DNA of 64,000 nucleotides from Eledone cirrhosa (taxonomy: Eukaryota): NCBI GenBank assembly GCA_964016885.1, contig OZ024742.1:330708001-330772000 (forward strand), in the 5' to 3' direction. Below, piece after piece: positions 2,314 through 45,679 of this stretch. Position 1 is the first letter of the stretch. Each line of letters starts with the position of its first letter. The translations under genes were made by a program, and so were the position numbers. Below the pieces are notes generated by a model. The model made no database searches. It saw only the letters and a list, made by a program, of their open reading frames with translations, and had not been told where the DNA came from.

Positions 2314-3601
2314 GTAATAATAGTAATAATAATAAAATTGAAGACCTAAAATCCAAAGAGGGCTCGATAAGGAAAATATATATCAAATATATAAGAACCG
2401 TAGAGCAAATATTTATTAAAATAACAGATTAAAGTTTAAGCAACTAGATCGTATAACGGAAATAAAAGACCATGTGACCTCTGCGCCGCTGAGGCCCTGG
2501 AAATACTCTACACCACAGACCACATCTTAAACAAAAAATCTGAGGCAATTTCGGCTTGTAAACATAAATTGAACAAAACTTTCCTGTATTACAGCCCCAC
2601 GTTATACCCTAACGGATAGCACGACCTATATGTGGATATTTTACGTCTTGATGTGGGAGCTAAGTATATGTTTTGTTTATTCCTTTACTTATTTGCATAG
2701 GTAAGTATATATTACCCGTATGTTTTGTGAAGGTATGTATACTTTCTCGTACGTATATTTGACTGTTATGGCGTATAATTTTTACATAGTCTGGTATTTA
2801 GGGTTTGGCTATGTGTATACGGGAGTTATGCGTCTGCGTGAGTATGCAGTTTCGTACGTATGGTGGGTGTGTGTATATGTGTACTTCTTGTTTTAGTTGA
2901 CTTACGTCTCCGAACATTCGTGTATTTATATGTAGGTATGCGTGTACGCTTGTTATATACGTATTTATTTACTTATATACGTTGATATAATTATTTATTT
3001 ATTTATTTGTAAACAAGTATACACACACATATTTATATGTGCGTGGTTTTGTATACCTATGGTAAGGTTTTGCGTATGCTTGTGTATGTACGTATCTGTT
3101 TGCATGTATATATTTATTTGTTTCTATTACTTCTGTATTGTATTTATTTACTTTGTTCTTAACTCTGTAGCGGAGATCAATTTTAGTCTACGACTTCTGC
3201 TATACCATTTACGTGGTTTTGTCTTTGCGTGCTATTGTTCTCCACGCTCTACATATGACTTATCATCTCCGTTTTTTCGTTCATTGCCAGAGAACGTCTC
3301 TATGCACCACCTAAGAGAACATTAGTCTACGACCTCTTTTATACCATAAACGTGGTTCTCTCTTTGCGCGTAATTGTTTTTCACCGCTCCTATTAATGAC
3401 GTATTATTCGTTTTTTCCCGTTCTTTGCCAGCGAACGTTACAACGAACCAAAGTATCGTTTTCCTGTCTTCCTCCGGTTGCAACGTTTTTTGAAATATCC
3501 AGTTCTGCGTTTACAGATTGACATTGTTAGTTACAGAAGATCCCGTTAAGGGTGAAAGCAGCGATTCCTTGGTTAAACATTAATCTGTTATTTTAATAAA
3601 T
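2314..3601 (+). mobile_element. 5'-truncated Penelope-like element, family A, copy 2, with inverted 3'-end copy at its 5' side
   Basis: About 2407-2443 is the reverse complement of the element's 3' end (TTGCTTAAACTTTAATCTGTTATTTTAATAAATAT), extended by a tail at 2314-2406. A GIY-YIG fragment and about 980 nt of 3' UTR follow. Flanked by (AT)n on both sides. Confidence 0.8.
2446..2619 (+). pseudogene. PLE GIY-YIG endonuclease C-terminal fragment
   Basis: Manual translation RSYNGNKRPCDLCAAEALEILYTTDHILNKKSEAISACKHKLNKTFLYYSPTLYPNG* matches the CxLCxxE..I..LNKxSE..CxH end typical of Neptune-type PLE ORFs. Not in the ORF track (no start codon). Confidence 0.8.
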
Positions 3602-3793
3602 ATATATATATATATATATATATATATATATATATATATATATATATATATATATATATATATATATATATATATATATATATATATATATATATACATA
3701 TATATATATATATATATATATATATATACATATATATATATATACATATATATATATATACATATATATATATATACATATATATATATATAT
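3601..3793. repeat. (AT)n microsatellite
   Basis: Direct reading. Confidence 0.95.
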
Positions 3794-4090
3794 AATTAAT
3801 ATATCTGGCTTTCTGGAGAATAGAGGAAAGGTGTTTCCTCAAAAACCAGTATGACTCTAAAAACCGGTTTGTCTGTGTGTTTACATACAGAATAGCTGGA
3901 CACTCACAGTAAAGTGACCAGTGAAAAACTCGGTACATCTACATATGTATACGTGTGTGTATTCATATGCATACTAGTATTTCAGTATACATATGTGCAT
4001 GTACATTTTTAACTTAATTGTTTAAGTGTCAGTCATACAAAAGTGAGTTACAAATGAAACGAAATTTAATTTCGTTTCGTTATTTGTTTT

Positions 4091-5136
4091 TATATATATA
4101 TATATATATATATATATATATATATATATACATACATATATATATATATATATATACATATATATATATATACATACATATATATATATATATATATACA
4201 TACATACATATATATATATATATATATATATATATATATATATATATATATATATATACATACATATATATATATATTAATATATATATATATATATATG
4301 TATATATATATATATATATATATACATACATATATATATATATATATATATATATATATATATATATATATATATATACATACATATATATATATGTATA
4401 TATATATATATATATATATACATACATATATATATATATATATATATATATATATATATATATATATATATATACATACATATATATATATATATATATA
4501 TATATATATATATATATACATACATATATATATATATATATATATATATATATATATATATATATATATACATATATATATATATATATATATATATATA
4601 TACATATATATATATATATATATATATATATATATATATATATATATATATATACATACATATATATACATATATACATATATATATATATATATATATA
4701 CATACATATATATACATATATACATATATATATATATATATATATACATACATATATATACATATATACATATATATATATATATATATATATACATACA
4801 TATATATACATATATACATATATATACATATATATATATATATATATATATATACATACATATATATACATATATACATATATATATATATATATATATA
4901 TATATATACATACATATATATACGTATATACATATATATATACATACATATATATACATATATACATATATATATATATATATATATATATATATACAAT
5001 TATATATATATATATATATATACATATGCACATATATATACATATATATACATATACACATATATATATATATATATATATATATACATATTCACATATA
5101 TATATATATATATATACATATATATATATATATATA
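4091..5136. repeat. (AT)n/(ATAC) compound microsatellite, about 1 kb
   Basis: Direct reading. Source of the spurious YI-repeat ORFs. Confidence 0.97.
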
Positions 5137-5560
5137 ATAAAAAATTGAACAGGGACAGAACAGAGAGGCAGTACGACAAATGTTTATTAGATTCACGCTC
5201 AGGAGAGTGGGGGGTAGGTGGAGGACGACGTTTCGGGCATAAGCCCTTCTTCAGGTAAGAGTTCAAAAGGTGTGTAGGGGAGTGGTGGAGAGACATATAG
5301 CGAAAGGAAACGGTGCGAATGAAAAATTAACAAATAAAGACAAAAATATAATAAATAAAAATAAAGCATGATCAAAATACAAGGAATGAGAACATTTAAA
5401 AATAAAGGCATGATCAAAATAAACTGAAATTAAAAGGGGGGTAAACAGGTGGTGGAAGGGTGTGGGGTGAGTAGAGGTGGAGGCGGGTGGAGTGGGGAGA
5501 GGGAGACGGGGTGTCCGAGCGGGGAGTAGATGTCGTATTTAATTTGTTGGAAGGCCGACA
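5137..5560 (-). mobile_element. PLE pLTR fragment (C/T-rich UTR, HHR, AATAAA, tail into (AT)n)
   Basis: Minus strand: pyrimidine-rich region, then CTGAAGAAGGGCTTATGCCCGAAACGTC, then AATAAA about 40 nt later. Confidence 0.65.
5225..5256 (-). ncRNA. Minimal hammerhead ribozyme motif
   Basis: CUGAAGA-A-GGGC(UUAU)GCCC-GAAACGUC. Stem III has no loop (dimer-type) and stem I is only about 2 bp. Confidence 0.7.
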
Positions 5561-5564
5561 AACA

Positions 5565-5785
5565 TAAATGTGTATTACTGATTTAGAGCACTCAACCATT
5601 ACTGGAATAAATATTCAATGATATTAAATAAATGGAAACTATATTTATAAAACAATATTTATTTTATTATCTATATTTCAAGGGTAACCAAGAATAATAT
5701 TGGTACGATTTCATCAGATAAAATACACAGTTTGTTTTATAAATAGAGACATACCCATGAAAATCATACTTATTAGCTGGAAATT
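5565..5785 (-). mobile_element. Diverged copy of the family at 43467-44230
   Basis: Shares GATATTAAATAAATGGAAACTATATTTATAAAAC, the TTGAGTGC tail and a CTGATGA...GAAA core. Confidence 0.7.
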
Positions 5786-44230: not shown

Positions 44231-44459
44231 ATATATAACATATATATATATATATATATATATATAACATATATATATATATATATATACATATATAATA
44301 TATATATATATATATATAACATATATATATATATATATATAACATATATATATATATATATATATATGACATATATATATAACATATATATCTATATATA
44401 TATATATAACATATATATATATGTATATATATATATATATATATATATATAAAATAAAT

Positions 44460-44642
44460 AATTGTTTCTACTTTTGGCACAAGGCCATCAATTACTCAGT
44501 GCATTACTGGTACTTTATTTTATCGACCCCGTAAGGATGAAAGGCAAAGTTACCCTCGACGGGATTTGAACTCAGACCCTAAAGGGACGTAACTATGCTG
44601 GAAAGCATGGCATCCGACTCTCTACTGATACTGCCAATCCAC
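44460..44642 (-). mobile_element. tRNA-derived SINE (family S1)
   Basis: Reverse complement of 51651-51835. Confidence 0.9.
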
Positions 44643-44645
44643 AAA

Positions 44646-45333
44646 TGAAATAATATTTCGCTTCAAGCATAGCTTTATATAATATGTATAGAAATTTCTT
44701 ATTTCTAAAGAAATACGGATTTAGGAAGCCGTAGCGATACAATCACCGGGGCTAACGTCCTCTGGTTGTGTCCAGCGGAAGAAAGGGGGACAACCGTCTA
44801 TGCATTTCAGGCTTGACTGCCCTTCGTCGGGATGGTCCCTCCCACCTCTTGCTACTTCTGGACTTGAAAACAGTAGAGAATATGTAGTTTTCTCGCCAGT
44901 CAAGTCTGAATTGCATAGACGGTTGTCCCCCTTGCTTCTGCTGGACACCACCAGAGGGTTAGCCCCGGTGTTTGCATAACTACGGCTTCATAAAACCGTA
45001 TTTCTTTAGAAATACGAAATGTCTATACATATTGTATAAAGATATGCTTGAAGTGAAATCTGTTTCCATTACTATTATAAGTTGAGCCAACTTATGCAGC
45101 TTCATATGCAAATGCGATTAAACACCTCATTTAGAAAACTATATATTCTCGACTGTTTTCCAGCAGTAGCAAGCGGTGGTAGGGACCATCCCGATGAAGG
45201 CCTGTCATGCATGAATTTTATAGACGGTTGTCCCCCTCGCTTCTGCTGGACACCACCAGATGGTGTTAACCCCGGTGTTTGCATCGCTACGGCTTCATAA
45301 AAGCGTATTTCTTTAGAAATACGACATTTCTAT
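44646..45333. mobile_element. Family B, second locus: minus arm 44646-44897, plus arm 44898-45333 (about 1.4 units, period about 305)
   Basis: Clear similarity to 11053-11541. HHR at 44793-44836 (minus, core CCGACGA) and a degenerate HHR at 45185-45228. Confidence 0.85.
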
Positions 45334-45377
45334 AAACACACACACACATATATATATATGTATATATATATATATAT

Positions 45378-45679
45378 ATATCACATAAGAGACGGAGAAT
45401 CAGTGTTGCGACGAATAAATTTGTTTAGACATGGAAACTCTGCTTCGTAGAATCGAGACGTATCTGAGGACCTTGCGATTTCAGAGTCAGATTCGATCAT
45501 TATATCGACCGTGCCTCGAGCTGTTCGCCAGAGTAACGATTGTAATATGTCTAATAAATGTTATTCGTCGCAACACTGATTGTTCGTCTCTTATGTAATA
45601 TCATAGTCTGCTCTATAAGAGCATCGAGTACTCAAACGGCCTACCGCTTACGGGCACTTTAAGCATCCAACACCAATTA
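45378..45679. mobile_element. Asymmetric palindromic insert: about 55-bp arms 45378-45432 and 45547-45601, 78-nt tail
   Basis: ACATAAGAGACG..ATCAGTGTTGCGACGAATAA is inverted at 45555-45597. TCGAGTAC at 45624. Flanked by (AT)n. Confidence 0.75.

Follow-up and report, generated by a model that had tools for sequence, protein, structure and literature searches.

How a series of apparently unrelated inserts could come to share one layout, with two inverted arms whose 3' ends point outward into (AT)n, is the question raised by a stretch of 64,000 nucleotides from Eledone cirrhosa (contig OZ024742.1, positions 330,708,001 to 330,772,000), hereafter the window. We consider it quite probable that these inserts are truncated ends of Penelope-like elements (PLEs) in six families and non-coding tandem hammerhead repeats in three others, with one family unassigned, and that their arms, which end facing AT at either a short (S) or a long (L) site, arose from a PLE enzyme nicking both (AT)n strands and priming two cDNAs.

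Layout of the inserts in the window

Self-alignment of the window recovered outward-facing inverted arms at all 11 of the inserts listed by the initial annotation. Throughout, one arm bears a 3' overhang, or tail, of 42-97 nt, which measures ~90-97 nt in family A, 61 nt in B, 42-43 nt in C, 78 nt in D, ~48-59 nt in E, 71 nt in F, 54 nt in G, 48 nt in H, 86 nt in I, and 78 nt in J. The overhang had been described together with the claim that one arm is always longer, but the overhang arm is not always the longer arm, as insert A has a tail-bearing arm of 130 nt and another arm of 1158 nt. The shortest inverted arms are 33 bp (2314-3601) and 20 bp (11591-11711). Dinucleotide microsatellites adjoin 19 of the 22 insert ends, the exceptions being the junction common to inserts G and H and the left end of the insert at 44646, which meets another repeat. 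The 11 inserts represent 10 families, with those at 11053 and 44646 belonging to the same family (80% over 386 nt). When all inserts were compared, no further pair aligned at E<=1e-3, and the supposed lack of relationship among the inserts fails for this one pair. Two family A features were missing from the original list: a plus-strand arm (1-920) ending at S in (AT)n, and a very short fold-back (19530-19666) comprising a tail-side arm, identified by eye, and a 65-bp S arm.

Coding and non-coding sources of the arms

In other copies, the sequences of families A, B, D, G, I, and J continue uninterrupted into a region coding for RT and/or GIY-YIG. The PLE origin that had been proposed is supported. 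RT and endonuclease regions were both seen for A, B, D, G, and I, and for J only a GIY-YIG C-terminus was seen, in its longer copies. Most PLE copies are broken and their Pfam scores fall under the curated cut-offs. A 4.05-kb tandem master of family G encodes a 1169-codon stop-free RT and GIY-YIG frame, split pieces of which matched RVT_1 (E 5e-4) and, weakly, GIY-YIG (E 0.049); Pfam searches with three whole PLE frames returned 0 families, and a PDB sequence search yielded no match. The tandem or partial-tandem pLTR form is found in this G master, in a 3.1-kb form of A, and in a partial tandem of D, and was not seen for B, I, or J in the loci fetched. PLE families also exhibit the inverted 5'-truncated copy and the single-end tail, the latter measuring 54-97 nt in the six families versus the typical 30-40 bp (PMC8557442). 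The putative clade labels used here (Hydra, Neptune, and Nematis type) are drawn solely from the motif diagnostics of PMC8557442: the Hydra diagnostics RW-R/Q, DKT, and CxCX5C occur in A, D, and I, and CX4CxxC plus CCHH-type residues occur in B and G. A candidate link between family D and an ORF at locus L301 was rejected, as that ORF is part of a separate element; the true D link was found at other loci.

Insert A (2314-3601) consists of a minus-strand L arm (2314-2443, tail 2314-2410) and a plus-strand S arm (2444-3601), and is probably the doubly truncated end of a Hydra-type PLE, with an endonuclease C-terminus at 2452-2589 and a hammerhead core variant at ~3530-3580. Of the two PLE remnants previously reported, the one at 2446 is this endonuclease C-terminus, located inside an arm of insert A, and the one at 14615 stands as a weak RT-region remnant (14617-14733, minus strand; 36% to the family I protein, E 0.003) outside all listed inserts. 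Insert B (6741-7061), a putative Neptune-type PLE end, has its L arm on the left (tail 6741-6801), its S arm on the right, and a U3-A8 type hammerhead at ~6947-6986. Insert D (11591-11711), a likely Hydra-type PLE end, combines a 20-bp S arm with a 99-bp L arm, both of which start at the predicted hammerhead cut site of the family. Insert G (17821-18406), with its L arm on the left (tail 17821-17874), its S arm on the right, and a hammerhead core at 18201, is the end of a PLE with an apparent Neptune/Nematis-type linker. Insert I (43467-44230) is the end of a very young, presumably Hydra-type PLE, with its S arm on the left, its L arm on the right (tail 44145-44230), and two hammerhead cores, a minus-strand one at 43567 and a plus-strand one at 44044, and insert J (45378-45679) has an S arm at 45378-45432 and an L arm extending to 45679 (tail 45602-45679).

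Inverted ends and TA-rich flanks could also suggest DNA transposons of the MITE or Foldback type, which would have terminal inverted repeats and target TA. However, the ends are asymmetric, sizes range from 120 bp to 7 kb, 5' truncation is seen in the copies, and both RT genes and hammerheads are linked to them. The RT linkage refutes a DNA transposon origin, which has virtually no chance of being correct. For annotation, there is a risk that the stubs are mistaken for MITEs or miRNA hairpins.

Families C, E, and H are composed of non-coding monomers of ~321 bp, ~422 bp, and ~564 bp, respectively, with a family E array exceeding 11 units and no consistently placed PLE ORF alongside any of the three. 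In insert C1 (11053-11541), a minus-strand partial tandem of the ~321-bp monomer extends to S (11056) and a plus-strand arm to L (11540), and a type I hammerhead core lies on the minus strand at 11202. Insert C2 (44644-45334), of the same family, has its L arm on the left, a partial tandem extending to S on the right, and decayed hammerheads. Insert E (11756-13278) begins with a minus-strand S arm (11756-11962), followed by ~3.1 tandem monomers extending to L, and contains three hammerhead cores (12035, 12553, and a damaged one at 12977). In insert H (18406-19482), the left side is the L arm, with its tail at 18406-18453, and the right side is an S arm in partial tandem. A type I hammerhead is found in each unit of C and E, whereas H instead carries a scrambled (SGC-order) hammerhead-like motif, located at 18490-18554 (minus) and 19382-19446 (plus). 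The unassigned insert F (13453-13664) has its S arm on the left and its L arm on the right (tail 13594-13664), with both arms starting at a TATA/initiator-like site at the leading edge of a type I hammerhead, and no ORF was found upstream of the two longest copies of this family. No autonomous partner was found for C, E, H, or F, nor any shared ends among the families of the window.

By descriptor and by eye, a hammerhead core motif with flanking helices was recognized in 9 of the 11 inserts, including core variants and decayed examples, in agreement with the view that most inserts carry one; for insert J, a hammerhead was not established. Among the pLTR hammerheads of the PLE families, A has a U4A core, B and D have the U3-A8 core that is already known (PMC4209133), and those of G and I were identified by descriptor. 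The ribozyme assignments rest on descriptors and covariation, as Rfam searches of the window and two sub-regions included no hammerhead among the matches listed. The Rfam matches listed for the window were mostly miRNA-like and all were below threshold. In family H, the blocks are ordered scissile site, GAAA, CUGAnGA, and stems I and III covary. Among 37 sequences of this motif, 94.6% of cells are paired and 11 of 18 pairs change on both sides; pairing was as high in 0 of 500 shuffles, which is not a probability, since the sequences are related. The one stem II pair examined occurs as four pair types and is paired in 26/37 sequences (70%), and the motif has an additional covarying outer helix.

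The initial annotation interpreted the inserts as dedicated non-autonomous fold-backs that rely on an enzyme acting in trans, with one priming event at the 3' end of an RNA and a second inside that same molecule. This is partly true of C, E, and H, with their non-coding monomers, and possibly of F, and D arms that stop at the predicted ribozyme cut site often have a partner stopping there as well. Conversely, six of the ten families are coding PLE ends, which refutes the interpretation for A, B, D, G, I, and J, fold-back centres vary within families, and in six families the template continues past L. As an explanation for the whole set, we find it very unlikely.

Two fixed 3' ends and how they may arise

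Genome-wide, the 3' ends of each of the 10 families lie at two fixed sites, S and L, beside microsatellites, as had been anticipated. Among the top-30 loci of the 10 families (280 loci after dropping 11 window-derived and 9 duplicate loci), 419 of 431 terminal ends coincide with S or L. Of the 431, 344 are followed by an AT run of at least 8 nt, compared with 7-9% of random positions. Family D has about 6,000 exact genome matches, and an unselected sample of 100 consecutive arms comprised 55 ending at S, 44 at L, and 1 elsewhere, with an AT run of at least 8 nt after 89 of the 99 S/L ends. All 29 outward pairs in this sample are S+L (~1e-9 if the ends were independent). Unselected sampling covered family D only; six queries included the tail, and that of F spanned the fold-back centre. 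Exclusive S+L pairing is not absolute, as 17 of the 126 selected pairs from the top-30 loci deviate (6 S+S, 5 L+L, and 6 L+other, versus 109 S+L), with the tandem families giving S+L in just 16 of 25. Among 23 extended loci, the kb-scale two-armed copies were S+L in 11/11 cases. A DNA search with the D tail only (78 nt) returned no matches and is uninformative on rarity.

Assembly or library fold-back artefacts would not yield a family-specific S+L asymmetry at more than 100 loci. Young arms are indeed 97-100% identical, and in the reads compared at insert B, its centre was spanned by no read or contig among the matches listed. However, older arms differ by 6-22%, and family B fold-back-type joints occur in short-read contigs, one at a depth of 24-27 in all three runs of one sample, and a second study contributes 120 raw reads with such joints, which have only 2 start places. 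It is extremely improbable that the palindromes are artificial.

Alternating AT of at least 3 nt is found at 16/16 endpoints (background 36%) and of at least 4 nt at 11/16 (background 16%), and L sits ~40-95 nt ahead of the first following ATG in A, D, and G. The template runs past L into the next unit in the tandem masters of six families (A, C, D, E, G, and H). It is therefore evident that L is not the RNA end and that S and L are both internal, contrary to the earlier proposal that one priming event takes place at the RNA end. The proposal of two priming events on opposite strands fared better, as it agrees with the S+L pairs in both the unselected and the selected samples and with the 5' reach of the arms.

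This 5' reach also bears upon snap-back copying, in which a cDNA primed at L would fold and copy itself, with the second arm then trimmed to S by the endonuclease (self-priming or "EN-mediated resolution"; PMC3846280, PMC8557442). Fold-back centres are often palindromic or overlapping, minor alleles are common to sister arms in G, B, and J, and S lies on AT letters that the endonuclease could cut, all of which would be compatible with such a route. Among 95 pairs with 5' extents obtained by reference mapping (all-against-all chaining being confounded by microsatellites), 55 are ties, which is likewise compatible, and the L arm reaches further by at least 10 nt in 21. In the remaining 19, it is the S arm that reaches further by at least 10 nt, the excess amounting to as much as ~1.1 kb. 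Since a snap-back copy cannot outreach its template in the 5' direction, this route is excluded for these 19 pairs. Furthermore, no tail could come from a cDNA primed at S, solitary arms ending at S are frequent (26 of 42 unpaired D matches, some with mismatched partners), and two RT start sites have been mapped in vitro (PMC11167929). Overall, we regard snap-back copying as unlikely. L and S arms also seemed to differ in their alleles (at D position 99, in F, and in G), which was considered as a sign of two templates, but in D the difference was gone in the unselected sample, and it was treated as query bias.

Separate priming of two cDNAs could proceed as follows. Firstly, a PLE enzyme, possibly as a dimer, would nick both strands of (AT)n, and the AT 3' ends would anneal to the RNA template, such that one cDNA is primed at the S site and one at the L site. 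The two cDNA ends would presumably be joined at the centre. Secondly, if the enzyme loads onto the terminal repeat copy in the 5' leader, the template of both cDNAs would come to an end at the start of transcription in B, D, F, and perhaps G and J or, alternatively, at a ribozyme-cut RNA end in D, and run-off at either would result in stereotyped tiny fold-backs. Thirdly, C, E, and H may move in trans, with tandem or circular RNA as a template that would fit their scattered 5' ends. In family B, 24 of 45 arms start at a distance of 205-214 nt from L, where a TATA box lies 30 nt ahead of them, and in family D, 58 of 100 start at 133-143, with the pile at 143 inflated through palindromic overlap at the fold-back centre, and another 7 at the predicted ribozyme cut site. 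These pile-ups may correspond to promoter-like sites and one ribozyme cut site, both of which are predictions. A more specific proposal, on which our own opinion is evenly balanced, is coordinated twin priming, in which a dimer would assign the two cut strands of (AT)n to different fixed RNA sites, giving every complete insertion one long and one short end. Arm starts would then record transcription starts and in vivo ribozyme cuts, and the same cis sites in retrozymes, the family with the SGC-order hammerhead among them, would be a direct footprint of the PLE proteins moving them. The genome supplies thousands of natural products with which to constrain such models (S paired with L in each insertion, arm lengths that vary independently, and run-off at defined RNA starts), and these constraints are testable in an existing in vitro system.

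Comparison with known elements

In LINE-1 twin priming, an inversion is created when a further cDNA is primed on the element RNA from the second strand of the target. The RNA segments copied in L1 inversions do not overlap and are primed at variable internal sites, whereas here both arms copy the same segment from two fixed sites.

The elements themselves are of a known kind, and the mechanistic constraints are what is useful. An inverted 5'-truncated copy, a one-sided tail, and a (TA)n bias are typical of PLEs (PMC8557442, PMC3846280), opposite-strand hammerhead pairs 100-700 bp apart have been reported (PMC4209133), and in vitro work on a PLE protein showed nicking and extension on each strand of AT-rich DNA, with two internal RNA start sites defining the tail (PMC11167929). 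The layout is thus not under-described, as had been suggested. What is added here is the exclusivity of S+L pairing, the S arms that extend beyond L arms, the same signature in non-coding families, and the arm-start pile-ups. How PLEs build their tandem or inverted structure and tail is an open question in the field (PMC8557442).

Like the EN+ PLEs of the Hydra, Neptune, and Nematis types (PMC8557442, PMC3846280, PMC2377424), the PLE families here exhibit pLTR partial tandems, an inverted copy, a single tail, a (TA)n bias, pLTR hammerheads, and a predicted pLTR promoter. They differ in that the tails are 42-97 nt rather than 30-40, in that a tail described as "optional" is present almost strictly once per insertion in two-armed copies, and in the large number of tiny stubs whose arms start at fixed positions. 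The parallels to Poseidon of the green anole, studied in vitro (PMC11167929), include two internal start sites, the use of both AT-rich strands, and a predicted dimer. However, the Poseidon work reported no strand preference and no homology of the start sites to the cut DNA, whereas in the present families S and L are mutually exclusive at the two ends of an insertion and both sites carry 3-5 AT letters. That work also reported no need for hammerhead cleavage, whereas the predicted cut site is where a number of D arms stop. These Poseidon observations weigh against the priming route proposed above.

Family H has the same block order and stems I and III as the type-SGC hammerheads (HRIMA-1 and variants; PMC10085705), but those are known from metatranscriptomes, whereas the H motif resides in a genomic tandem repeat and has the extra outer helix. 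Which enzyme moves animal retrozymes is an open question in the field (PMC7229834; bioRxiv 10.64898/2026.07.22.740005), and PLEs have been proposed in those sources as the mobilising partner. Judging from their sequences, C, E, and H appear to be retrozyme-like tandem families with the PLE two-site signature, a combination that is added here. C and E resemble the metazoan non-LTR retrozymes of the same sources in having non-coding tandem monomers with a type I hammerhead per unit, and H would differ from them in its 564-bp monomer and scrambled ribozyme. The portions of these papers examined describe neither an inverted arm nor a tail, and the word "inverted" is absent from that of PMC7229834, whereas C, E, and H show both.

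Fold-back architecture and its two endpoints

Self-alignment bears out the outward-facing inverted arms that the initial annotation had seen at 11 of 11 places, starting at 2314 (A), 6741 (B), 11053 (C1), 11591 (D), 11756 (E), 13453 (F), 17821 (G), 18406 (H), 43467 (I), 44646 (C2) and 45378 (J). C1 and C2 form one family, and among the inserts no further pair aligns at E<=1e-3. Every insert (11/11) has one arm that overhangs the stop of the other by 42–97 nt. We refer to the short and long fixed 3' endpoints as S and L and to the stretch of the L arm past S as the tail. The tail-bearing arm is not always the longer one, as in A it measures 130 nt versus 1158 nt for the other. 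Microsatellite contact is found at 19 of the 22 insert ends; head-to-tail monomers occur in C (~321 bp), E (~422 bp) and H (~564 bp). At 11541–13453 (C1-D-E) and 17795–19720 (G-H-A), unlike families are stacked end to end via short (AT)n runs, as if the flank of one insertion turned into the next target.

Several other repeats share the window. Further family A copies lie at 1–920, with a long S-ended arm, and at 19530–19666, as a very short fold-back. An older relative of family I (73%) sits between (AT)n runs at 5140–5790, and its type I hammerhead core at 5717 on the minus strand looks intact. A ~190-bp dispersed repeat, presumably SINE-like, occurs in both orientations and in tandem at 22005–24047, 44452–44642 and 51064–51846, and one of its copies adjoins the left end of C2. 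There are also two copies (77%) of a ~520-bp repeat in opposite orientation (42904–43417 and 50374–50893), with (AT)n beside each, as well as three more weak inverted repeats (74–86%) outside the listed inserts (24163–24220, 46909–47160 and 56619–56702).

The 3.0-Gb genome was searched once per family at the DNA level, yielding 212–3917 candidates each, with 40 scored and 30 loci retained per family. Removal of 11 window-derived and 9 duplicate loci left 280 loci, in which terminal ends number 431 (254 at L, 165 at S and 12 elsewhere). In 344 cases the end is followed by an AT run of at least 8 nt (background 7–9%), and in 403 by a dinucleotide repeat of any kind. The 126 outward-facing pairs comprise 109 S+L, 6 S+S, 5 L+L and 6 L+other in a sample biased by the tail lying inside six queries and by an F query spanning the fold-back centre; S+L pairing is looser in the three tandem families (16/25) than in the remaining families (93/101). 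An unselected test used the family D 20-mer just before S, which has 5,983 exact matches (control, 0), and took the first 100 matches along contig 1. These arms end at S in 55 cases, at L in 44 and elsewhere in 1, with an AT run after 89 of the 99 S/L ends, and all 29 pairs are S+L, which would arise by chance at ~1e-9 if the ends were independent. Among 23 extended loci, two-armed copies spanning 2–7 kb are likewise S+L in 11/11.

That the fold-backs are artefacts is argued against by the family-specific asymmetry of their ends and by their diverged arms. Sequencing reads were compared with insert B only and do not resolve its own centre. Fold-back-type joints of family B are present in short-read contigs, one at a depth of 24–27 in each of the three runs from a single sample, and also in 120 raw reads of another study, at 2 start places. 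The architecture is real and of a known class.

Priming sites and arm starts

The initial annotation had reverse transcription primed once at the RNA end and once internally. The former is not borne out, as the tandem masters (longer tandem copies) of A, D, G, C, E and H continue beyond L. The first ATG lies 40–95 nt past L in A, D and G, so that S and L fall within the leader of the following unit. Judged by these copies, S and L are both internal sites. Alternating AT of at least 3 nt lies within 3 nt of 16/16 endpoints on the template (background 36%), and of at least 4 nt at 11/16 (background 16%), consistent with an (AT)n 3' end pairing with the template. The (AT)n 3' end of the target would anneal to the AT stretch of the template at S or L, and two separate priming events would yield the two arms. 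Alternatively, one cDNA might fold back and copy itself, in which case the copy could not extend 5' beyond its cDNA. Yet among 95 S+L pairs from seven families the S arm reaches further by at least 10 nt in 19 (L in 21, tie in 55), and a cDNA primed at S would have no tail to give. Both points favor two priming events over such a snap-back and, together with the uniform pairing in unselected family D (29/29), make the double priming originally proposed the likely mechanism.

Sister arms of family G share rare variants (divergence 0.016 vs 0.026 to non-sisters; 11/12 pairs below the median), as do those of B and J; none was measurable in A, D and F, and sister arms of family I show 1 difference in 1171 nt. 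This sharing is evidence of a common source lineage, not of one single RNA. An apparent L/S allele asymmetry in family D vanished in the unselected sample of 100 arms.

Arm starts cluster in some families. Thirty nt behind a TATA box begin 24 of 45 B arms (205–214 nt before L) and, among the arms listed from a biased query, at least 47 F arms (130–138). In D, 58/100 begin at 133–143, with a TATA-like word 25–29 nt ahead of them and with palindromic overlap making up part of the pile at 143, and 7/100 begin at the predicted hammerhead cut site versus 3 in the next 18 positions. At least 15 J arms begin at 248–252, and 6/14 S arms of G at 310–336, between two motifs that we take to be NRF-1 and YY1 sites. 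Mapping of 5' ends gave no pile-up in A and I. The starts of C, E and H are spread out, E and C having no more than a slight excess directly past the cut site. We infer that run-off from a 5' leader or from cleaved RNA would account for the tiny stereotyped fold-backs. At three family D loci (L290, L305 and L315), the sole arm stopping at the predicted cut site is the L arm (3/3), and the S arm reads through, a sample too small for a wider conclusion.

Coding capacity and ribozymes

The inserts had been regarded as non-autonomous, which is wrong for most of them. Because A, B, D, G, I and J continue into RT and/or GIY-YIG coding frames, 6 of the 10 families are, by sequence, truncated autonomous elements. 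Family G is the terminal part of a tandem unit of 4.05 kb. The 1169-codon stop-free frame of this unit scores under curated cut-offs for RVT_1 (E 5e-4) and GIY-YIG (E 0.049), and the best named relative of its protein is an octopus protein (69% identity). A tandem array of this family with a 4.05-kb period (L091, G000:C4:94735000-94744900) encodes an N-terminal insert rich in asparagine and threonine. Families I, A and D run on into frames that encode RT and endonuclease and carry RW-R/Q, DKT and CxCX5C; family J runs on into a GIY-YIG C-terminus. The frame that continues family B carries DKG and CX4CxxC, motifs by which it is classed as Neptune-type. The Penelope-like element (PLE) remnant noted at 2446 is the endonuclease end of A itself (2452–2589); the piece near 14615 (14617–14733) is a weak, separate PLE remnant. 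C, E and H consist of retrozyme-like tandem repeats without coding capacity, and at one E locus >11 units are folded around a centre. No ORF link was found for F in its two longest copies.

Families A to G and I carry type I hammerhead motifs, with a U4A core in A and a U3-A8 core in B and D. H instead has three blocks ordered scissile site, GAAA, CUGAnGA (SGC, non-circularly permuted order) at 18490–18554 (minus) and 19382–19446 (plus), with a relative in the same order at 27124–27211 (minus), all with covarying stems I and III. Over 37 sequences (copies together with relatives), pairing holds in 94.6% of cells and 11/18 pairs change on both sides, a level reached by 0/500 shuffles; stem II has one pair only, paired in 26/37. 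An extra covarying outer helix lies one spacer base from a stem I strand, and the two may be alternatives or formed in a dimer.

Relation to known elements

The initial annotation considered such fold-backs under-described, a view that fails for most inserts, since layout, tail, microsatellite bias and two start sites appear in passages of PMC8557442, PMC3846280 and PMC11167929. The first describes the inverted 5'-truncated copy, one-sided 30–40 bp tail and microsatellite bias as typical of PLEs and lists their origin as open; the second shows this layout too, places TATA/Inr within the terminal repeat (pLTR) and proposes self-priming; and the third has nicking and extension of both strands, with two internal start sites defining the tail. 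Passages elsewhere locate a promoter in the pLTR (PMC2377424), report hammerhead pairs on opposite strands 100–700 bp apart as well as the U3-A8 core (PMC4209133), and put PLEs forward as partners of retrozymes, with no insertion signature given (PMC7229834; bioRxiv 10.64898/2026.07.22.740005). In the portions of the open-access PLE and retrozyme literature covered, we found neither strict S+L exclusivity nor the S/L signature of retrozymes described. The present data constrain an open mechanism quantitatively and add a footprint that would tie retrozymes to PLE enzymes.

Compared with the 30–40 bp typical of PLEs (PMC8557442), the tails here are 42–97 nt. By motifs, families I, A and D share RW-R/Q, DKT and CxCX5C with the Hydra clade, for which a passage of the same source gives these as diagnostics and states insertion into (TA)n, and the N-terminal insert of family G resembles those of rotifer Penelope elements (PMC3846280). 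Finally, H shares its block order with the type-SGC hammerheads described, in the part of PMC10085705 drawn on here, from metatranscriptomes, whereas H is a genomic tandem.
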